Shown piece after piece: positions 596-56,543 of a stretch of DNA of 64,000 nucleotides. The position numbers and the translations under genes were made by a program. A model generated the notes under the pieces. That model worked only from the letters and a program-made list of their open reading frames with translations, had not been told where the DNA came from and made no database searches. The DNA lies in the NCBI GenBank assembly GCA_041671765.1, contig JBAZAX010000007.1:68-64067 (forward strand), read 5' to 3'. The DNA is from Candidatus Babeliales bacterium (GTDB lineage Bacteria; Babelota; Babeliae; Babelales; RVW-14). Each line of letters begins with the position of its first letter. The stretch's first letter is position 1.

Positions 596-727
596 AATAC
601 TTTCACACTGAAATTAAACCAGACTCTCTTTGATTTATCCCGAATATAAAATATACTTAATTATAAGATTTATTCAAAAATTTAAACTTAGTATAAAAAA
701 CGATCAAAATATGGGCATTGCAATATC

Positions 728-1249
728 ATGACAAACTCACAGTATTCTATCAGAGCCTTAACAGAACAGGACTTTCAGACCATGTTTCAATGGCTGCAAA
801 ACCCTCATGTTTCTTGGTGGTGGCAGGTAGGCACACAATGGCCGAAATTTGTAGAAAAATACAGACAGCACATCGAATGCGATTATATATTTCCATTTAT
901 TATGCAAGTCGATGGTAATGCTATTGGTTACATTCAATATTATTATACAAGCATGGTAGATATCAGCTGGGTAAACGAAATATCTGACAAACCGAAAAGT
1001 ACTGTCGGAATTGATATTTTCATTGGAAATCCTGAATATTTTGCCAAAGGCTATGGCACAATTTTTATGAAAATGTTTATCGAAGAGTTGTGGAAGCAAT
1101 CAGAGATAAAAAAAATCATAGTCGATCCGCAACCGGAAAATCTTCAGGCTATTCATTGTTTTAAAAAACTTGGGTTTACAGAAATTCGAAAAGTAACACA
1201 CCCCGAGGGTGATGAAATATTTTATATGGAATTGGATAGACCAGCCTAA
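728..1249 (+). CDS. GNAT N-acetyltransferase, AAC(6')-Ib-like
   Basis: 173 aa, colinear with AAC(6')-Ib as I recall it. LTEQDFQTMFQWLQNPHVSWWW vs LTEHDLAMLYEWLNRSHIVEWW; IGYIQYY vs IGYAQSY; IVDPQPENLQAIHCFKKLGF vs QTDPSPSNLRAIRCYEKAGF. Substrate not inferable. Confidence 0.75.
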   Translation: MTNSQYSIRALTEQDFQTMFQWLQNPHVSWWWQVGTQWPKFVEKYRQHIECDYIFPFIMQVDGNAIGYIQYYYTSMVDISWVNEISDKPKSTVGIDIFIGNPEYFAKGYGTIFMKMFIEELWKQSEIKKIIVDPQPENLQAIHCFKKLGFTEIRKVTHPEGDEIFYMELDRPA

Positions 1250-2205
1250 CGCTGATTTTTTGGTATATACTCAAAACCTCTGATAAATTTAAAATCCGGT
1301 GTGAAGACATCAAATATTCTTGCCCTTAGTTGAGCAGATTCTTCCGGATCATCTTGTTGTTCAAGTCTAAGCTTAAGATAGATTTTCAAAGATCCTTCAC
1401 TCCCAGCTATGTAAATAAGATCATTAATTTTATAATTAAAACGCGGTTCTGATGAAGTCCAAGCAATTTTAGAAATAAATTCAGCATAATAATCATTAAT
1501 TGCATCAATAAATGAATCCAATATTTCACTTCTTTTTATCGGATTACTTTCATAAAAAATTGGTACATAAACAACAATCACTGGGAAATTTTGACTTGTT
1601 ACTGCAGAAAAAAGATTAGGATCAACTACTTTAAATAATTTTATACTGCGTAATTTTGGATCTTTATATAATATTTTAAAAAAATGGCTAATAAATGATA
1701 TGAGATACTCTGGTTTTACTTGTAGATGAATTTTAAACTTGCAACCCATAATTTTGATGGCTTCGCGTCTTTCTAGCTCATTGTCGGAATAAAAGGCCCT
1801 TTCATATACCCTGTTGGGAACCCGAATTTGCGACTCAATCTGCGCCCATCTTGGATTTTTTAAATCTGGCCATACATCAGAAAAAAAGCATGCCACTTCT
1901 CCACCATTTTTTTCTAGAAAGTCCTGAACTGCAGAGTCGTATAACTTATTGTCATCATCTGAAAATAATGTTTTTTCAAAGTGATAACAAAAATCACTTG
2001 CCCCTTCGCGCTCAAAACAGACAAAGTTACCGTCATCTACAAAAAATATCCCCGGTTTTTTGCTTGGTTCGAGAATTTTTAAAAAATTTTCCGTACTATA
2101 CTCGATTAAGTCAAGCGACTTGTAGGTAAGACCTTCATCGCGTGCCATTGAGCTTAATGACTTAAATATTAAAAGCAAAAAAATGCTTATTTTGACAAAT
2201 TTCAT
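1246..2205 (-). CDS. hypothetical secreted protein (N-terminal signal-like leader)
   Basis: 319-aa ORF with leader MKFVKISIFLLLIFKSLSSMA. No family recognised. The stop overlaps the convergent GNAT stop by 4 nt. Confidence 0.6.
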   Translation of the reverse strand: MKFVKISIFLLLIFKSLSSMARDEGLTYKSLDLIEYSTENFLKILEPSKKPGIFFVDDGNFVCFEREGASDFCYHFEKTLFSDDDNKLYDSAVQDFLEKNGGEVACFFSDVWPDLKNPRWAQIESQIRVPNRVYERAFYSDNELERREAIKIMGCKFKIHLQVKPEYLISFISHFFKILYKDPKLRSIKLFKVVDPNLFSAVTSQNFPVIVVYVPIFYESNPIKRSEILDSFIDAINDYYAEFISKIAWTSSEPRFNYKINDLIYIAGSEGSLKIYLKLRLEQQDDPEESAQLRARIFDVFTPDFKFIRGFEYIPKNQR

Positions 2206-2335
2206 ATTCCCCCACTTAATTTATGTTTTCTTTAAATATCGTTCTTATCTCTTATAAACTTACGAAAAATTTTAGTTTTTGTAAAAAGGGCTGTTATATG
2301 ATATTCTCTTATTAATTAATTTTAAGAGGATTCTC

Positions 2336-3286
2336 ATGCAAATTCATCCACTCGAAGTCAAAAATTTAACGAAAACATTTCATTCCGAAAAGTTTTTATT
2401 TCAAAACAAAAAAAGCGAATTTACCGCTGTAAATGACATATCTTTTATCCTAAAAAAGGGCGAATTTCTAGGCTTTTTGGGCCCAAACGGAGCCGGAAAA
2501 ACAACTACAATACAAATGCTTCTCAATTTATTAACTTCAACATCCGGATCAATACAATTTTTTGGCAAAGATCCACTAAAAGACAGAAGCGTAATGCAAG
2601 ATATTTCATATGCAAGTGGATATATGAAACTTCCAAGCTCACTAACAGTACAGCAAGCTTTATTAATGTACGGAATGCTTTACAACATGAACATGTCCGT
2701 ACTCAAAGATAAAATAGATCTTTTTTTGAATCTATTTAACTTAAAACACTTATCACAACGCAAGGTTACCACCCTTTCGGCCGGACAAACCACAGCGGTT
2801 CTACTTGCACGAGCATTTCTGGTTGATCCAAAAATTGTTTTACTTGATGAACCAACAGCAGCGCTTGATCCCGAAAGTGCCTGTAGAATCAGAGATTTTA
2901 TTAAAACTGAGAACAAAAAAAATGGTGTCTCAATTCTTTTTACATCCCACAATATGCCGGAAGTTGCAGAGCTGTGCGACAGAATTTTGGTTTTAAAAGA
3001 CGGGAAAATCGTCGCAGATAACACTCCTGAATACTTGGTCTCAACAGTTTGCATAACACACGTTCAGTTGATTATTGGTGATGGAATGAAACGTACAATT
3101 GCATATGCCTTAGAAAATAAACTCGAACATAAAGTTGAGGACAGGCTCATTGAGATCAAAATTGATGAACACAAAATCTCTGAGCTACTTTCAGGCCTTG
3201 CCAATAAAAACGTCAGCTACACGCAGATATCAATTGAAAAACCAACACTCGAAGATTACTTTTTGACACTAGTAAAAAATCGCTGA
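2336..3286 (+). CDS. ABC transporter ATP-binding protein (ABC-2/DrrA-like)
   Basis: Walker A GPNGAGKTT, signature LSAGQ, Walker B LLDEPTAALD. AAGAGGA SD upstream. Confidence 0.9.
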   Translation: MQIHPLEVKNLTKTFHSEKFLFQNKKSEFTAVNDISFILKKGEFLGFLGPNGAGKTTTIQMLLNLLTSTSGSIQFFGKDPLKDRSVMQDISYASGYMKLPSSLTVQQALLMYGMLYNMNMSVLKDKIDLFLNLFNLKHLSQRKVTTLSAGQTTAVLLARAFLVDPKIVLLDEPTAALDPESACRIRDFIKTENKKNGVSILFTSHNMPEVAELCDRILVLKDGKIVADNTPEYLVSTVCITHVQLIIGDGMKRTIAYALENKLEHKVEDRLIEIKIDEHKISELLSGLANKNVSYTQISIEKPTLEDYFLTLVKNR

Positions 3287-3305
3287 TTATTAAAGGACCA
3301 TTAAT

Positions 3306-4106
3306 ATGAATTTCAAAATTAAACGTGTTTTTGCCGTTGTCATGCGCCACTTACTGTTAATGAAAAATCCGTTTGAACTGACAAGCCATCTTTATTGGGT
3401 TTTAATGGATGTGGTAATTTTTGGTTTTTTAGTTCAATCAATGAATAGACAGGGAAACAACTCTTTAAATATTGCTACAATATGCATTCTTACAAATTTG
3501 GCAGTTTGTTATGTTTTCGCGCGCGGAGCCGTAAGCCTGGCATCAACCCTTTTAAAAGATCTGTCTGATTTAAGTTTTGTAGGACTTATGGCAACGCCCA
3601 TAACAACTGCCGAATGGATTTTTTCCCAGATAATTGTGGCAGCAGTCTCTTCCGGAATAAGCTTTTTAATGGGATTTGTATGCATAGGAATTTTTTTTAG
3701 ATTTAATGTATTCTCGTCAGGGCTTGTTTTAATCCCTGCAATAATTTCTTTACTAATATCAAGCTGGACACTTGGAATTTTTATGCTTTCGCTTGTAATA
3801 GTTTTTGGGAAAAAATCATCATCTAGCATTCATACTGTTCCATGGCTTTTTCTCCCTTTTAGTGGTGTTTTTTACTCAGTAGCCATTCTTCCGGCATACT
3901 GCCAAAAGATAGCATCATGGCTACCTATGTTTTACATCTTTGACGGATTAACCCAGTATATTAAAAATGGACAAAGTATAAGTTTGGCTTTATTAAAAAG
4001 CACGGGACTGAATTTAATTTATTTCACAGTGGCAATTACCCTTTTTATGATAATGTTTAAACGACGAAAAAATATTGGTTTAACCCGACTTGAACTGGAA
4101 AGCTAA
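3306..4106 (+). CDS. ABC-2 type transporter permease
   Basis: 266 aa with about 6 hydrophobic spans, immediately downstream of the ATPase in the same operon. Confidence 0.75.
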   Translation: MNFKIKRVFAVVMRHLLLMKNPFELTSHLYWVLMDVVIFGFLVQSMNRQGNNSLNIATICILTNLAVCYVFARGAVSLASTLLKDLSDLSFVGLMATPITTAEWIFSQIIVAAVSSGISFLMGFVCIGIFFRFNVFSSGLVLIPAIISLLISSWTLGIFMLSLVIVFGKKSSSSIHTVPWLFLPFSGVFYSVAILPAYCQKIASWLPMFYIFDGLTQYIKNGQSISLALLKSTGLNLIYFTVAITLFMIMFKRRKNIGLTRLELES

Positions 4107-4127
4107 TCGCAACAAAGAGGGCTTTTC

Positions 4128-4952
4128 ATGGTTTTCAAGAAATTTTCACGCATAAACACCCTAGCTGTTATACCATTCTGTGTAATTAATGTGCCAAACT
4201 TGCCCGCTCGTGGTGAGTGTTTTTTGCAGGCCGCACCCTTCGATATACCTCGCAGAGCTCGGCACTCAGGGCGAGCGGCCAAAAAAAACGTATCGAACCA
4301 TGCGGGCATAATATTTACTTTGAATGGTATTATATTATTTTTATTATTCTTCAACGCATATTCTCTGAATGCAAATCTTGTTGAAATAAAAAAAATAAAT
4401 CCAACAATCAAACTCGATATTCGATACGCAACAACAAATAATTTTACAGGCAAAATTATTTATCCATCTGCACGGTGTTTTCTTGAAGAAGAGGTAACCA
4501 AGGCGCTTGATGCAGTACAAAAAGAACTAAATTCAATTGGTTATGGACTAAAAATATTTGATGGGTACAGACCACTTTCAGTGCAAAAAATATTCTGGAA
4601 TATATACCCTGATGAAAAATATGTAGCAAATCCAACCAAAGGATCCAAACACAACCGCGGAACAGCTGTTGATTTGACTTTGATTGATACCAAATCAGGA
4701 AAAGAACTAAAAATGCCATCTGAATTCGATGAATTCTCTTCACATGCAAACCGTAATTATGCAAAAATGAACGACAAAGCAGCTAAACACAACTGCAAGC
4801 TACTCGAATTTGTTATGAAAAAGCATGGTTTTATAGGTCTTACTAGCGAATGGTGGCATTTTGACTACAAAAATTGGAAAAAATACCCGATTCAGGATGT
4901 TTCATTTACAGAGCTAAAAACCCAAAATCCGCTAGTTAACAATTCTAATTAA
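4128..4952 (+). CDS. ddpX: D-alanyl-D-alanine dipeptidase (VanX/DdpX family)
   Basis: IRYATTNNFTG, GYRPLSVQ, SKHNRGTAVDLTLID and EWWHFDY match VanX-family zinc-dipeptidase motifs. ATG 4128 has AAGAGGG 6 nt upstream. The N-terminal approx 65 aa contains a GC-rich repeat, so the start is uncertain. Confidence 0.85.
   Translation: MVFKKFSRINTLAVIPFCVINVPNLPARGECFLQAAPFDIPRRARHSGRAAKKNVSNHAGIIFTLNGIILFLLFFNAYSLNANLVEIKKINPTIKLDIRYATTNNFTGKIIYPSARCFLEEEVTKALDAVQKELNSIGYGLKIFDGYRPLSVQKIFWNIYPDEKYVANPTKGSKHNRGTAVDLTLIDTKSGKELKMPSEFDEFSSHANRNYAKMNDKAAKHNCKLLEFVMKKHGFIGLTSEWWHFDYKNWKKYPIQDVSFTELKTQNPLVNNSN
4202..4280. repeat. GC-rich palindromic mini-element (copy E1, GCCCGCTCGTGGTGAG module)
   Basis: Starts GCCCGCTCGTGGTGAG, as at 26782 and 29204, and ends GGGCGAGCGGC, the inverted complement of its start. 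Stands out as GC-rich in an AT-rich background. Confidence 0.6.
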
Positions 4953-5235
4953 CGCCAGTTCGATAATTAGAAATCTACTTGTATTTTCGACTGGGACATT
5001 GCTTACGACGTGTACTTTTGTCATCCTGAACTTGATTCAGGATCTCTTTATTCAAGGCTTGAAGATCAAAAAAAGCTTGTATTTGTGAAATTTATTAATT
5101 TTATGGGTACTGAAATAAGGGATTTTATTTCATTTATATAGATCCTGAATCAAGTTCAGGATGACAAAAATACAATTCAAAGGCCTCTCTCCGTAAGTGT
5201 TTTAAAACTTTGTTGAATTATCGAGTTCGCGTTAA
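4949..5235. mobile_element. MITE-like non-autonomous element, copy 1 (287 bp)
   Basis: Terminal inverted repeats TTAACGCCAGTTCGATAATT (4949-4968) and AATTATCGAGTTCGCGTTAA (5216-5235). Internal approx 29-bp inverted repeat TTTTGTCATCCTGAACTTGATTCAGGATC (5016-5044 / 5141-5170). No ORF. Second copy at 23440. Confidence 0.75.
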
Positions 5236-5434
5236 TTAGATAGACAATTTTTAACCTTAAGTTTTCAGGCTGAAATCTTTTTAATCAATTCAATGCAAAA
5301 TCCTGGGTTTTATATCAAAAAACGCCTCCAACAAACCATAAGAAGTCGTCCTGACCCTTTTGCACATTGCTAAAATATTCGCTATTATTAATAATAGAAT
5401 TAAATAAAATTTATATTTTTATGGAGGTTATATC

Positions 5435-6490
5435 ATGAAAAAAAGTTTATTATTAACGCTTTTGACGTTAACTGCATTTCAGGTTTCAAGTAAAGTTTAC
5501 ACTATGAAACAAGACCAGGACGAAACTTCGAAAAAACGAGATCGTGAGGATCAGTCAAGAGAAGGGAAAGCCCCTGATGCAACACGAAGTAAACAAGATG
5601 CACCCAAAGGCGCCGAAGGCCAAGACCCTGAAGGTGCTGCACAGATAGCAGTGCCGGCAGCCGCCGCTGCAAGTGCCGAAGCCGCAGAAAATCGATGTGG
5701 AATTTGTTTTAATGATTTTGGGTCAAAAAATGAAGCTGGACAAGTTGTTACACAAATAAAACTTCCTTGTTGTAGTTATACAATTTGTGAAAAATGCTTA
5801 GAAGACGCCTTAAAAACTCGTCCCGTCTGTCCTCAATGCAGTGAACCAATTTCAAATCTAAAAATGCTTAAAGACAAAATAGTTGTTGCAATGATGCAGC
5901 GAAAAATTAAGGAAAAGAAAGACAGAATCAAAAAAGAACACGAAGAAGCAAGAGGACGTGAAAAAAGGGAACAAGAGACTGCTCGAATACAAGAGCAAAT
6001 CAGAAAATTTTCTTCCGGAGAGGATATTACGGCATATGTTGATGTTCCCGGAGATACTTTAGTAAATGTTTCATTCATATTAAAATTAAGAAACGCAGAT
6101 GACGAAGGACTCACAGTCTCTACTCAGCTACCTATACTACATTTTTTAGCCAAGGGTGGACCTGATGGACACGATGAATTTAAAGACGCTTTTGAACTTG
6201 TAAAATATTTTGTAGAAGAAAAGCATGCCAATATTAATCAAAAAGTAAGAGTTCCGGATCAAACCAAACGCTTTTATGGGAGAGGTGTTTTTGGAATAGA
6301 TGAATTTTTTAGAATAAATCCTTTCCAAGAAGATAATTTCGTAGAATTAACCCCATTGGAAATTGCTGAAGTATACGGAAATCACAGTATTGCTGCATAT
6401 CTGCGTGGTAAGATTGCAGAACAGCAAGCAGCTCAAGCTCGCGAAGCTGCCGAACGACACGCACCACCTGAGAAATGTGCTATACAATAA
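5435..6490 (+). CDS. leader-bearing RING-like zinc-finger protein with basic coiled-coil, possible degenerate ankyrin repeats and C-terminal CaaX box (CAIQ)
   Basis: Leader MKKSLLLTLLTLTAFQVSS. Eight-Cys cross-brace-like CGIC..PCC..CEKC..CPQC. K/E/R-rich helix. TPLEIAEVYGNHSIAAYL is ANK-like. Ends EKCAIQ*. GGAGG SD. Confidence 0.7.
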   Translation: MKKSLLLTLLTLTAFQVSSKVYTMKQDQDETSKKRDREDQSREGKAPDATRSKQDAPKGAEGQDPEGAAQIAVPAAAAASAEAAENRCGICFNDFGSKNEAGQVVTQIKLPCCSYTICEKCLEDALKTRPVCPQCSEPISNLKMLKDKIVVAMMQRKIKEKKDRIKKEHEEARGREKREQETARIQEQIRKFSSGEDITAYVDVPGDTLVNVSFILKLRNADDEGLTVSTQLPILHFLAKGGPDGHDEFKDAFELVKYFVEEKHANINQKVRVPDQTKRFYGRGVFGIDEFFRINPFQEDNFVELTPLEIAEVYGNHSIAAYLRGKIAEQQAAQAREAAERHAPPEKCAIQ

Positions 6491-49543: not shown

Positions 49544-50467
49544 GTGATAAAAGATAAGTTTGTTATAAATTTTAAGAAAAAGTCTAATATATTTTTGGCA
49601 ATCACAATGGCCACTTTACTAATTTGTTCAACATTGCATGCCATGGTAGAGGATGACTCAACCAACGCGCTTGGGCTTGCAACAAGCGACGGCAACCTAC
49701 TAGAAATGGCTAGTCTTATCGAGATGGGAGCTGATGTAAACAGTGCAACTATCATTGATGGCCAATTAAAAACCCCACTTTTTATTGCTATTTCAAGAAA
49801 CAATTTAAAGGCCGTTAAATTTTTGGTTATGAAGGGAGCCTTCATTGATGTATCATCAAGTAACTCACCCTCACAAGAAGATCCTTTATGCCTAACGCCT
49901 GTGCATTATGCAGCAATGCTTGGGTACGAAAATATTTTCAGAGCTCTTATTATGAATGGAAAATCCGCAACAGAAATTGCTGTCATAAATTTAAGGGATC
50001 ATCATGGCAATACGCCACTTCACTATACTGCCAGACAAGGCAGTGAGTCAAACACAAGGTTATTACTTGAAAAAGGCGCAAATCCAAATGCCATAAATAG
50101 TTTGGGTTATACACCCATTTTTGATGCTGCATTTAATGGACATGCACATATAATTCAATTACTGCTTGAATCAGGAGTATCTCTCTATTTAAACGATGTT
50201 AGGGGAATAGTTCACTCTGCTCTTGCTGCAGCTTGTAGCAACGGACAAGTTGGTGCAGTTGAAATATTACTAGCAAAATGTACTTTTACATTAAAAGATA
50301 TAACTGAATCAATTGATCGACTAAGCTCCTTTGTTCGTCACTCTGATGCATGTTGCACCGGCAAACCCAAAGAAGCCAAATGTGCAAAATGTCTTGCGAA
50401 TGAAGAGAAAATAAGTCATATATTTATCGCGTTAAGCGTAAAACAAGGGCTGTTGAGGGCGATTTAA
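49544..50467 (+). CDS. ankyrin-repeat protein (GTG start) with N-terminal hydrophobic segment
   Basis: GNTPLHYTARQGSESNTRLLLEKGANPNA, GYTPIFDAAFNGHAHIIQLLLESG and others. Leader IFLAITMATLLICSTLHA. Confidence 0.85.
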   Translation: MIKDKFVINFKKKSNIFLAITMATLLICSTLHAMVEDDSTNALGLATSDGNLLEMASLIEMGADVNSATIIDGQLKTPLFIAISRNNLKAVKFLVMKGAFIDVSSSNSPSQEDPLCLTPVHYAAMLGYENIFRALIMNGKSATEIAVINLRDHHGNTPLHYTARQGSESNTRLLLEKGANPNAINSLGYTPIFDAAFNGHAHIIQLLLESGVSLYLNDVRGIVHSALAAACSNGQVGAVEILLAKCTFTLKDITESIDRLSSFVRHSDACCTGKPKEAKCAKCLANEEKISHIFIALSVKQGLLRAI

Positions 50468-50773: not shown

Positions 50774-51001
50774 TGCTCTCTCCTTTCATTAAATGCTTCC
50801 ATTAAAACTTGGACCTACCCCTTGCTGTCACTAACCTATCACGAAAGAATTGTCATAAAAAAGAATTTGCTTAAATTGGCATTCAACAAGAAGGTAATTA
50901 CTTTTTTAAAATTAAAACTTATATATTACTTTCCTTTTTTCTCACTCACATGTTAAAATTTTACAACTTTGGTCGGAAATATAACAAATAACAGGAGAAA
51001 A

Positions 51002-51649
51002 ATGAAAAAATTATTTTTGAATTTTCTTATTTTTACAACAACGGTATTTACAATACAATTCGTCAAACCAATGGGCCAAATAGAACCGCCAAAAACACTT
51101 TTTATTGCACCAAATTTTCAATGCTCCTTAAATTTTAAAGCTCAACAAGCCAATGTGGTTCAATTGGAGTACCAAATTGATAATCCAAATAAAAAGCTTT
51201 CTCCACTTAGCCCGGCCAACTCATTTGATATAACATTCGTAACACTAACCTTTTCTCTATTTAATAACAGCATAGACGCCACATGTCTTTTGAAAAATAT
51301 TTCGATTTCGGGAGAAAAAGCAACCACTTCTCTCTCTCAAATTCTTCTAAATAGTGGAATATTAGGGATTGACGCATTCATGGCACAAGAATTTAATCGC
51401 CCTAAAATGATTAAACATCTTATTGAAATAGCTTTGAGCATATACTTTCGAGAGCATGTTATTAGTTCCCCAAATTGTGTACTTTGCCTAAAAAAAATAA
51501 ATTATCAAAAGTCTATTATGCTTTTAAAATGCGGTAGTACAGTGCATAAAAAATGTTACAAAAAACACGCAGCGGAGATAATATGCACCACATGCAACAA
51601 TGTTATGACGGAGGATTTTTGGTATAAATTAAAAGCATTACCTAAATAA
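51002..51649 (+). CDS. leader-bearing protein with C-terminal RING-like zinc finger
   Basis: ATG 51002 after AGGAGA (MKKLFLNFLIFTTTVFTIQF). C-terminal CVLC-x14-C-x4-H-x2-C-x3-H-x5-C-x2-C. Confidence 0.6.
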   Translation: MKKLFLNFLIFTTTVFTIQFVKPMGQIEPPKTLFIAPNFQCSLNFKAQQANVVQLEYQIDNPNKKLSPLSPANSFDITFVTLTFSLFNNSIDATCLLKNISISGEKATTSLSQILLNSGILGIDAFMAQEFNRPKMIKHLIEIALSIYFREHVISSPNCVLCLKKINYQKSIMLLKCGSTVHKKCYKKHAAEIICTTCNNVMTEDFWYKLKALPK

Positions 51650-53543: not shown

Positions 53544-56294
53544 TTATAAAATCGAACACCACCATGATGATTCTTTTGTCAGGCCACTTATTATCATGGA
53601 GCTGATCAATGCATCTTTTCGAACGGAAGAAAGCTGTGGTCTATATGGGTTTAGAACGGCAACCGATTCATCTTGGCTACCTGCAACAAGGCTTTCAAGA
53701 TTATATCTAAAAAACCAGTATTGTTCTGGAGAAACAGCAACAACACCTCGCATTAACTCTATTAAAATACCTCTTTTAATACCCAACTTACACCCAAGAA
53801 TGCTGTATGCATTACATGCGATGCTAACCAACAAAGAACGTTGTGTGTTTGTACGATCTTCTGATACAAGATATTGTTTGGCATCTGCCAAAAATTGCCT
53901 ACTTATTGAAGCCAAATCGACACTCAAATCACTATGACAAATTATACTGATATAACGTCTTGAATAACTGAATATCAGCGCAGATAATACATCAATATTT
54001 TTTTGTCGCTTTATAAAATTTTGCAAAGCATGAAGGGCTGTAATTCCTGCAGGCAAGTAAGCCAAAGTTTTAGCCGCATTCTCCCTATTCTCTGCCTGAA
54101 GTACTTTATGTAAAAAAGCAACAGTATTTTCTGCGGCAATAAACATACATGCAGCTTTTAATGGATCTGAAGGAAGTAATGCCGGAACAAGCGCATAACA
54201 AGCCGATATTGCACAACGTGTATTAATGTCATCTTTGGGATAAGAAGCTTGATTATGCGGTATAGTTTGAAAATTTACATCAAACAAAGACTGCCCTATT
54301 TTTTGTAGAAAATAAATTACCTCTTCTCGTATATTTTGTCTCAATGACGAATCTTCAAGAGCTTCAATCAAATGATAAACAATTTGCATAGCCGAACCAC
54401 TTTGAGGAATTATTTCCTTATCATGGATATAAAAAATAAGAACTTGAATTGATGGATCTGCAATAGAAGAAGCCTCTCTGACAAAATTTTGTATAAGTGC
54501 CTTTTTAGGAGAAATCCCAACTGCCAGTAATAATCTGATTAAAAAAGCTTTCACAAATTTATTATCAAGATTCTGACTCAACGCTCTAATAACATCGTCA
54601 AATCCAACCAATTCTCTTTTATCAAAATGCTTACGACCTGGTATAAGCAGGAACAAAGGCTCTAACAAATCAATCGCATTTTTAATATCACCCCGAGCCT
54701 GACTCTGTAGCAAACAAACACCTCGATACCAAGAAAGAAGATGTTTATTCCCTAACTTTTCAATAAATGCAATCGCTTCATCATGCTTACCATCCCTATA
54801 ACAACGCGCTATGAATGCATTATTATCTACTTGCGATGGTTGTTCGTGAACTTCTTGTTTAGACACTTGGGGAGCGGGTTGTAATGACGATTCTGCTTCA
54901 GGCTTAACTTCTTCTTTTCTATGCTCAACCATTTTTACAGACTCCTGTCTGATAGGGGCTTGCTTTTCTGGAGCTTTTTCTTTTTTACGCTCAGGTTTTT
55001 TGGCATGCTTTTGCACAACCTGTTTATCTTGAGGTTGTTGCGCCGCAACAACTTTAGACACTAAAACCTCAGGCGTTGCAACTGGTTTGTCAGGCACCGA
55101 ACGCAAAACCACAGAACTTGATTCCAGCTCTTGGGGAGCAGGGGAAGTAGATTGCAACAACGGGTGCGTTTCAGTCTTAATTTTTTCTTTTTTCTTTTCA
55201 ACTGATTTTACAGGCTCCTGTTTCTTAACAGCCGGCTGTTTATCAGCCGGGCTCAAAGATTGCGTATCAACCGCCCTAGGCTGTTGTAGATCTTGTTGCG
55301 CTGGAGAATCTTGTCGCCCTAAAACTTCTGTATGAGCCAAAGCCTCAGATACTTCAACCGTCTTTTTAGGCTCTGAACTCAATCTTATAAAACTTGGTAT
55401 AAACGCAGGGGCATCAGGATTTAATTTGCTTTTGTTCTCAGTCAATAAAACGTGAGTTGAAGATGAAGTCGATGGAGCTGGTTGTGGTAGTGCCGGCTCC
55501 GGTAACAATTGCAATGGTAATATTGATGTATGCTCAGGTGCAAGTACAAAATCAAAATGATAATGTCGAACAAACACCTGTGCCACGGGACACCCATCCA
55601 CAGCAGCAGAAAAAATCTTTCCCAAAAGCAACTGTTTTGGCCACTGAATAGAACGCCACACATCTGAACGTTTTTTTTCGACTCGCTTCGAACCAATATG
55701 AGCCATATGTTGTAACCACTTGTGATCATTCTGAGCAAGATTGTGTAACTCTTCTAATATCCGATATTCAAGCGAAGATCGAGCAAGATGTACCGGATCA
55801 AGCTGTGCAAATATTTGTTGATTAACATCAGGTTCATGTTTGTAAGAATCTCGCTCTCGAACAAATTCTTGCAGTTGAGAAAGTTCATCAAAAGTCAGTA
55901 AGTTCATCTGGTGCCGCTCGTGCGCAGCCCAAAGAGCATCACACTCGCGATATTTTTTCACAATCTTAGATTTAATACTTTTTAAAAGCGAATCTTTGTC
56001 GACACGTGAAAGACATCGATCATTCTGTAAATATAATTCTTGCAATTCAAGACCATTAATATCTTCATGTATCCTTGAAAGAACATCCTTGATAAATTGC
56101 ATTTCAAAAAATTCAATTTTCATATAACGATCATAAGTCTCGCAGCACTGTGCAATATATTGATCTCTTGCAATCTGTTTCTGTTCAGACGAAGGGCCGG
56201 CGTAAGACTCCATTCCGAATAATTGAAAATTAACATTTAATAAACTTATTGCAAAAATAAAACCTTTAAACGATAGAAAGCATAACCTTTTCAT
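53544..56294 (-). CDS. large (916 aa) leader-bearing orphan protein with P/Q/K/E-rich disordered centre, helical C-terminal half and CaaX box (CSIL)
   Basis: Leader MKRLCFLSFKGFIFAISLL. Central low-complexity region (KKQEPVKSVEKKKEKIK.., KKPERKKEKAPEKQ..). Ends SSWWCSIL*. Confidence 0.65.
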   Translation of the reverse strand: MKRLCFLSFKGFIFAISLLNVNFQLFGMESYAGPSSEQKQIARDQYIAQCCETYDRYMKIEFFEMQFIKDVLSRIHEDINGLELQELYLQNDRCLSRVDKDSLLKSIKSKIVKKYRECDALWAAHERHQMNLLTFDELSQLQEFVRERDSYKHEPDVNQQIFAQLDPVHLARSSLEYRILEELHNLAQNDHKWLQHMAHIGSKRVEKKRSDVWRSIQWPKQLLLGKIFSAAVDGCPVAQVFVRHYHFDFVLAPEHTSILPLQLLPEPALPQPAPSTSSSTHVLLTENKSKLNPDAPAFIPSFIRLSSEPKKTVEVSEALAHTEVLGRQDSPAQQDLQQPRAVDTQSLSPADKQPAVKKQEPVKSVEKKKEKIKTETHPLLQSTSPAPQELESSSVVLRSVPDKPVATPEVLVSKVVAAQQPQDKQVVQKHAKKPERKKEKAPEKQAPIRQESVKMVEHRKEEVKPEAESSLQPAPQVSKQEVHEQPSQVDNNAFIARCYRDGKHDEAIAFIEKLGNKHLLSWYRGVCLLQSQARGDIKNAIDLLEPLFLLIPGRKHFDKRELVGFDDVIRALSQNLDNKFVKAFLIRLLLAVGISPKKALIQNFVREASSIADPSIQVLIFYIHDKEIIPQSGSAMQIVYHLIEALEDSSLRQNIREEVIYFLQKIGQSLFDVNFQTIPHNQASYPKDDINTRCAISACYALVPALLPSDPLKAACMFIAAENTVAFLHKVLQAENRENAAKTLAYLPAGITALHALQNFIKRQKNIDVLSALIFSYSRRYISIICHSDLSVDLASISRQFLADAKQYLVSEDRTNTQRSLLVSIACNAYSILGCKLGIKRGILIELMRGVVAVSPEQYWFFRYNLESLVAGSQDESVAVLNPYRPQLSSVRKDALISSMIISGLTKESSWWCSIL

Positions 56295-56511
56295 AACATC
56301 TCCATTATTTGCTTTATCTGTTTTTAATAACGTACACTGTATATATTTAAAAAGTGTCTATTAAATATATATTTTTATATTATCAATTTCTATTTGAACG
56401 TCAATAATGGCCTGAAATTTTGGCTTTTTAAGCTCAAGAACAACTAAATGTTTTCAGCCTGAAACTATTTAGTTGTTTTAAAGACCATGCCATGGCGTAT
56501 AAAGTCTTGAA

Positions 56512-56543
56512 TAAAAAAATGGACCCTGTCTTCAGGGCCCATT
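56512..56543 (-). terminator. rho-independent terminator
   Basis: Minus strand GGGCCCUG-AAGA-CAGGGUCC (one G-U), followed by AUUUUUUU. Confidence 0.55.

Follow-up and report, generated by a model that had tools for sequence, protein, structure and literature searches.

The locus analysed here raises the question of what a bacterium might do with a large protein that ends in a eukaryotic lipidation signal. The window, a stretch of 64,000 nucleotides, lies on contig 7 of the 1.45-Mb genome (50 contigs, 93% complete) of a Candidatus Babeliales bacterium and contains on its minus strand an open reading frame (ORF) of 916 amino acids (53544..56294), whose C-terminus reads ..LTKESSWWCSIL-stop (..SSWWCSIL*). 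An earlier note on this DNA had pointed to the ORF, to its ending and to low-complexity strings in its centre, and these are present exactly as described. The most informative feature of the 916-aa protein is a conserved PAM2 peptide in its linker. We propose that the protein is a host-directed effector of a Dependentiae (Babeliales) parasite that would be geranylgeranylated by the host and act as an adaptor tethering or sequestering the host poly(A)-binding protein (PABP), a reading which, taken as a whole chain, we hold tentatively and at a little under even probability. Dependentiae are a widespread phylum of protist parasites, and their effector biology is essentially unstudied.

PAM2 motifs follow the consensus LNxxAxEFxP, in which two hydrophobic pockets of the MLLE domain are occupied by Leu3 and by Phe10, the latter being named the 'single most important residue'; Asn4 steadies the turn, position 5 prefers Pro, Ala7 does not vary, and Pro12 is commonly present (PMC7356810, PMC2854688). 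The 916-aa protein carries such a motif at the following position:

55389..55433, minus strand: PAM2 (PABP MLLE-binding) short linear motif, residues 288-302, SKLNPDAPAFIPSFI, Pfam PF07145

The consensus positions are present as Leu291 (3), Asn292 (4), Pro293 (5), Ala295 (7), Phe298 (10) and Pro300 (12). PF07145 scores 21.5 bits on the whole protein, 26.1 bits in a six-frame search of the genome (E = 1.8e-5), where residues 288-302 are the only match, and 27.1 bits on the isolated peptide. The curated cut-off is 20, and 0 of 14 control genomes exceeded it. Among 2.9 million six-frame residues there is a single occurrence of the strict pattern LN[PVA].A..F.P. In domain searches of the whole protein, Pfam returned PAM2 only and NCBIfam nothing. 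A phmmer search of the PDB with the 40-residue PAM2 region gave no matches, the deposited PAM2 peptides being mostly under the 20-residue limit. The segment is disordered in the structural model, with a predicted local distance difference test (pLDDT) score of 25-29.

An exhaustive profile search among 1.84 billion representatives found 11 relatives, all from one Babeliales lineage. Over two word-indexed searches, this profile search and scans of genomes and metagenome contigs, the family amounts to about a dozen sequences of that lineage. The protein was rightly called an orphan, as no Pfam or NCBIfam family domain was found beyond the PAM2 motif. Six full-length orthologues share 46-89% identity with it, P0007 and P0008 are more distant family members (∼32% identity), and four long paralogues (P0011, P0013-15) resemble it in no more than leader type and solenoid core, lacking both CaaX and PAM2. 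The form LNP[DE]AP[ASV]F.P is kept in all six orthologues (6 of 7 full-length homologues). Among 230 ten-residue windows of the linker the PAM2 peptide ranks first in the 46%-identical orthologue P0006, with 80% identity against a mean of 29%, and the codons within it show synonymous differences among the orthologues. We favour, if narrowly, a functional binding of MLLE by this peptide. Neither this genome nor 30 relatives were found to encode an MLLE domain, and any partner of the PAM2 must therefore be encoded by the host. The motif thus gives the 916-aa protein a specific predicted host target.

The second eukaryotic motif is the C-terminal box:

53547..53558, minus strand: CaaX box C-S-I-L, residues 913-916, with Ile at a2 and Leu at X, of the CaaL (geranylgeranyltransferase I, GGTase-I) class, with the TAA stop at 53544-53546

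The earlier note had named beforehand a terminal CSIL that is not conserved as grounds against its claim. The claim stands: down to 32% identity, the C-termini of the family carry Cys at position -4 in all 11 cases and Leu as X in 10 of them. The C-terminal boxes of the family are CSIL (six), CTIL (three), CSLL, CGIL and CSIS (one each), the CSIS belonging to a 69-residue fragment. Upstream of the Trp-Cys pair the residues vary (SSWW, SWLSW, SFLSW, TFFSW), and the codons show synonymous changes and changes of the a1 position (TCG/TCA/ACG) around a fixed TGT. Judged by this pattern of conservation the box is more than a product of chance, because Cys and Leu are kept to 32% identity while the adjoining upstream residues vary.

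CaaX boxes with Leu, Ile or Met as X form the class recognised by GGTase-I, and in humanised yeast the human enzyme geranylgeranylated CTIL, the ending of three orthologues, to completion (PMC11152559), which bears out the assignment of CSIL as a GGTase-I-type box. The accompanying view that Gln or Met as X directs farnesyltransferase fits in so far as CaaS and CaaQ boxes were not GGTase-I substrates in that assay; for Met it was simplified, as CaaM boxes can be of dual specificity (PMC11152559). In the 93%-complete genome a prenyltransferase alpha subunit (PF01239, PPTA) had no match at E <= 0.1. A bacterium without its own CaaX prenyltransferase must therefore leave any modification to the host.

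The three other CaaX proteins announced for the window also exist, ending in CAIQ, CEIM and CSLQ. Genome-wide, 26 of 1133 ORFs have Cys at -4 where about 15 are expected; other terminal positions mostly have 12-18, and position -9 has 24. Most carriers of Cys(-4) are leader-bearing orphan ORFs, and the association of CaaX with a leader (Fisher p ∼0.01) is indicative only, given the crude leader predictor. Among leader-bearing ORFs, the CaaL class comprises CSIL of the 916-aa protein, CNIL (C5:58561-60135, plus strand) and CGLL (C35:5028-6722, minus strand), and about a dozen leader-bearing ORFs of the genome end in C..Q/M/S. At the sequence level, this supports the suggestion that the CaaX set may address both host prenyltransferases. 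Prenylation of the 916-aa protein itself we consider likely.

We propose the following course of events. The Sec leader would carry the protein over the inner membrane, and a secretin-dependent route or outer-membrane vesicles would release it into the host cytosol. There, as the conserved motif and the precedent of Legionella AnkB and the Pel proteins suggest, host GGTase-I would put a C20 geranylgeranyl group on Cys913 of CSIL. After removal of -SIL and methylation, the lipid together with the adjacent Trp-Trp would anchor the C-terminus in a host membrane. The disordered linker of ∼240 residues would then present the PAM2 (LNPDAPAFIP) to the MLLE domain of the host cytoplasmic PABP, and the helical domain at the N-terminus would, like the Sel1/TPR-like solenoid, contact further partners. 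The net result would be a membrane-anchored adaptor that holds PABP and polyadenylated messenger ribonucleoproteins (mRNPs), so that host translation or mRNA turnover is redirected or damped to the benefit of the parasite. Possible outcomes are the tethering of mRNPs near the parasite, the sequestration of PABP, or the recruitment of a decay or ubiquitin activity. In the genome, a VirB4-type ATPase of type IV secretion systems (T4SS) was not found, and three secretins were. Chromulinavorax, a cultured member of the Dependentiae, forms its replication body directly in the host cytoplasm, encodes signal peptides in 44% of its coding sequences and sheds vesicles (PMC6561590), and secreted proteins could therefore meet cytosolic enzymes.

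Parts of this course are known from other systems. Legionella AnkB and the Pel proteins are bacterial effectors prenylated by the host (PMC2916131, PMC13081727). L. pneumophila, with AnkB and PelA-K, is an intracellular, amoeba-adapted bacterium, likewise without a prenyltransferase of its own, and its effectors have a conserved terminal CaaX too and undergo the lipidation by the host and the anchoring at the cytosolic face of membranes that are predicted for the 916-aa protein. In contrast, the 916-aa protein comes from another phylum, has no sequence or domain homology to AnkB or Pel, ends in a CaaL box instead of one of the farnesyl class of AnkB, and bears a Sec-type leader in a genome where no VirB4 was found, whereas the Legionella proteins are delivered by the Dot/Icm T4SS. 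No PAM2 has been reported for any Pel or AnkB.

On the eukaryotic side, Paip1, Paip2, ataxin-2, eRF3, Tob, PAN3 and GW182 contain the same 12-residue LNxxAxxFxP in a disordered context and with the same determinants (PMC2854688, PMC7356810). These proteins are mostly adaptors that recruit some other activity to poly(A)-bound PABP. The 916-aa protein differs from them in being bacterial, in Ala9 for Glu9, in the lack of homology outside the motif and of PAM1, and in its predicted lipid anchor. By analogy, the closest functional counterpart of the proposed mechanism is Upa1 of Ustilago maydis, which attaches MLLE proteins (Pab1, Rrm4) and mRNAs to endosomes by means of a lipid-binding FYVE domain and PAM2-type peptides (PMC4466420). 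The two are alike in layout, with a membrane-targeting module, predicted for the 916-aa protein, and PAM2-type peptides in a long disordered protein. However, Upa1 belongs to its own cell rather than to a parasite, uses FYVE and not a prenyl group, depends for its essential contacts on PAM2-like peptides for Rrm4, and has no sequence relationship to the 916-aa protein. It is possible, if rather doubtful, that the latter represents the first effector of a bacterium to dock onto PABP, a PAM2 adaptor pinned by GGTase-I at a host membrane, perhaps beside the replicating bacterium, where it would capture PABP with its mRNAs and relocate or silence host translation.

Several points weigh against the proposed chain. 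At position 9 of the PAM2 the orthologues have Ala, Ser or Val and not the preferred Glu, and with 27.1 bits the bacterial peptide scores 3-8 bits under the textbook peptides of human Paip2, ataxin-2 and Paip1 (34.6, 31.5 and 30.2 bits for what we presume to be their sequences). P0007 and P0008 lack PAM2 though they have CaaX. The family can therefore do without PABP docking, and the motif was either gained within it or lost on the P0007/P0008 branch. The family alignment is shallow, and the PAM2-bearing orthologues are only six, from close relatives. Unlike in many GGTase-I substrates, no polybasic stretch adjoins the CaaX box. A Sec leader would direct the protein to the periplasm, and the onward route to the host cytosol is putative, as are the PABP and the prenyltransferases of the host.

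The first group of these points would suit a prenylated scaffold effector that acts via its helical domains at the membrane and whose island LNPDAPAFIP serves another partner or a structural role. In favour of it, CaaX is kept more strongly and more widely than PAM2. In addition, PAM2-scoring peptides are rare in the phylum, two of their three carriers show no conservation of the motif, and some such matches can arise by chance. What makes this account unlikely is that the six positions that determine binding are all occupied and do not vary among six orthologues, that no part of the fast-evolving disordered linker is better conserved than the island, whose E-value is 1.8e-5 on a per-genome basis, and that a disordered, predicted cytosol-facing context is where PAM2 motifs work.

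The leader and the lack of a detected dedicated effector-injection system, with VirB4 absent, would also agree with a bacterial envelope or periplasmic protein that never meets host enzymes. In that case WWC[ST]IL would be kept for a bacterial reason, such as a disulfide, a metal or cofactor ligand, or sorting and anchoring, and the eukaryotic-looking motifs would be coincidental. We know of no bacterial C-terminal sorting signal that resembles a four-residue CaaX without a transmembrane helix, which counts against this explanation. Against it stand also the conservation of two independent eukaryote-specific linear motifs in one protein, the genome-wide excess of CaaX-ended leader proteins, including RING-finger proteins without a bacterial substrate system, and the absence of a detectable bacterial MLLE domain or prenyltransferase. 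A disordered K/E/P/Q linker of 240 residues would be atypical of periplasmic proteins, and cultured Dependentiae, which live in the cytoplasm of their host, release numerous eukaryote-like proteins with leaders (PMC6561590). A purely bacterial role is thus quite improbable.

A ubiquitin-pathway adaptor whose PAM2 is aimed at another host MLLE protein (a HYD/UBR5-type E3 ligase or a protist-specific MLLE fusion) is very improbable, since PABP occurs in all eukaryotes and far exceeds their other MLLE proteins in abundance and the motif is of the canonical PABP-binding type, not the Rrm4-specific PAM2-like variant, even if MLLE domains occur outside PABP in UBR5/HYD (PMC5592244) and in Rrm4 of Ustilago (PMC4466420) and the neighbouring effectors are RING-type E3 look-alikes.

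For the proposed geranylgeranylated PABP adaptor, the two motifs differ in novelty. That hosts prenylate bacterial effectors is established in the case of Legionella and Salmonella and unpublished for Dependentiae; we found no paper that pairs 'Dependentiae' with 'prenylation'. As a CaaX effector, the 916-aa protein is of a known kind in an unstudied phylum. For its candidate role as a PABP ligand we found no bacterial precedent in print: no literature report of a PAM2 mimic from a bacterium came up, and reviews on how bacterial effectors mimic motifs never use the word. The PAM2 weighs more, since PABP is central to translation and mRNA decay in eukaryotes and is often targeted by viruses. 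A lipid-anchored PAM2 adaptor would be a simple hypothesis for how an energy-parasitic bacterium captures host mRNA or stops its translation at a membrane. If true, Sec-leader proteins of Dependentiae would be shown to reach the host cytosol, which bears on effector delivery in the phylum.

Bacteria that infect protists may resort to PAM2 mimicry repeatedly, a strategy not yet described. In all 261 species genomes of the phylum (145 genera, ∼0.8-1.8 Mb each), three independent proteins exceed the PAM2 cut-off, namely the 916-aa orthogroup and one protein each at the loci L009 and L010. The L009 protein (648..4544, minus strand; G056:C4) has 1298 amino acids, belongs to another Babeliales family and contains RKLNPSAPVFIPGG with 23-24 bits. 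The L010 protein (3158..5422, minus strand; G029:C2) bears a leader, has 754 amino acids and carries the C-terminal GLNPKAKEFIPKA with 20.5-21.8 bits, which loses significance once its E of 7.4e-4 is multiplied by the 261 genomes of the phylum. In homologues of both proteins, the PAM2 is either not covered or not kept. The two peptides are leads, single instances that lend no support to the reading of the 916-aa protein. The L010 protein and the homologous protein of L022 (1009..3108, minus strand) have a basic C-terminal tail KKR..HNPY.K in common (KKRRVHNPYAKF, KKRYTHNPYQKT).

Around the two motifs, the protein is organized into five parts:

56214..56294, minus strand: leader, residues 1-27, MKRLCFLSFKGFIFAISLLNVNFQLFG, Sec-type with basic n-region, hydrophobic core and polar c-region

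55545..56213, minus strand: helical N-terminal domain, residues 28-250, with long helices at 37-90 and 97-130 (AlphaFold2, AF2, pLDDT 45-82)

54828..55544, minus strand: disordered K/E/P/Q/S-rich centre, residues 251-489 (pLDDT 23-32, composition, conservation profile)

53697..54827, minus strand: alpha-solenoid, residues 490-866, all-helical with ∼17 helices (AF2 pLDDT ∼80)

53559..53696, minus strand: flexible Ser-rich tail, residues 867-912, ending in Trp-Trp (pLDDT 32-46)

The earlier note had described a leader, a low-complexity centre and a helical C-terminal half. The disordered centre and the helical C-terminal half agree with the model, whereas the helical N-terminal domain between residues 28 and 250 had been overlooked. 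Its comparison with scaffold-type effectors likewise fits the alpha-solenoid and the disorder, but the centre is not a mere linker, since it holds the conserved PAM2. The structure prediction and fold search that it had called for gave a confident solenoid for the C-terminal half and no specific fold match.

Met28 follows directly after the leader and is invariant in all seven homologues, and orthologues and paralogue P0011 have the same type of leader. No ribosome-binding site precedes the internal Met28 codon, and the leader is therefore probably translated. We infer that it is cleaved; the crude hydrophobicity-based predictor of signal peptides, which flags 30% of ORFs, misses the leader of the 916-aa protein. 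Residues 28-250 are 70-90% identical among close orthologues and match nothing in Pfam or NCBIfam, and the confidence of the AF2 model is modest there and stays low with the shallow alignment. An identity with the ribosomal protein eL22 was rejected: a PDB profile match to residues 33-99 (window 56001-56198) reached only E = 0.0074 and 17.8 bits, and the model has long helices in this region, not an eL22-like alpha/beta fold. We take this marginal match as chance; it coincides with a translation-related motif elsewhere in the same protein.

In the centre, K, E, P, Q and S make up 55% of residues 251-489, and the model shows no secondary structure from 250 to 489. Besides the PAM2 it contains smaller conserved islands at about 406-416 (..TPEVL..) and at 431-441 (basic KKPERKKEK; KRKKEK in orthologues), within window 54972-55079, which could be additional linear motifs, for example a patch resembling a nuclear localization signal or binding membrane or RNA. 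A K-rich segment of ∼17 residues, PVKSVEKKKEKIKTETH (residues 361-380, window 55155-55214), is shared with the partial orthologue L029 and absent from the other orthologues; no DNA repeat goes with it. That the GC-richer centre is an in-frame palindromic repeat insertion of this genome was ruled out, as 54700-55700 contains no direct or inverted repeats.

The solenoid core (494-828) is common to the CaaX-less paralogues, with 26% identity to P0011 (E = 1e-18). Foldseek with the full-length AF2 model returned nothing from the PDB at E <= 0.001 and otherwise generic ARM/HEAT/karyopherin solenoids only, and no specific function can therefore be assigned to the C-terminal half. The 916-aa protein has no Sel1 (PF08238) or TPR match in Pfam; among its homologues P0007 scores 28.7 bits against the Sel1/TPR cut-off of 30.7, and the paralogues show weak TPR/Sel1 similarity. 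On the basis of the model, the most fitting description of the C-terminal half is a degenerate Sel1/TPR-like scaffold for interactions, where "like" does not mean membership of either family. Sel1-like-repeat (SLR) proteins of intracellular bacteria, such as LpnE and EnhC of Legionella, are exported, degenerate Sel1/TPR hairpin solenoids with presumed protein-protein contacts. The 916-aa protein differs from them in that it has no Sel1 match itself, only sub-threshold scores in homologues, and no specific structural match. The tail between solenoid and CaaX box is conserved in sequence (ISSMIISGL.KESSWW).

The ORF is a real gene and a stand-alone transcription unit, because it is preceded by the terminator of a ferritin-like gene (a hairpin at 56518-56543), by a promoter-like site of its own downstream of that terminator, and by GGAG before the ATG:

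56377..56404, minus strand: promoter-like site TTGACG-16 nt-TAATAT with TG (consensus scan and sequence reading; a consensus match only, with putative function)

56299..56306, minus strand: ribosome-binding site GGAG, a few bases before the ATG at 56294, read from ...aataatggagatgttATG

The gene order pilin - ferritin - 916-aa gene is kept in relatives. Leader-bearing RING-finger proteins (zf-RING_2) are encoded on the plus strand at 50969-51649 and 5435-6490; an ankyrin protein is encoded at 49544-50467. Since RING-finger and ankyrin genes flank the locus, the 916-aa gene adjoins an islet of eukaryote-like effector genes.

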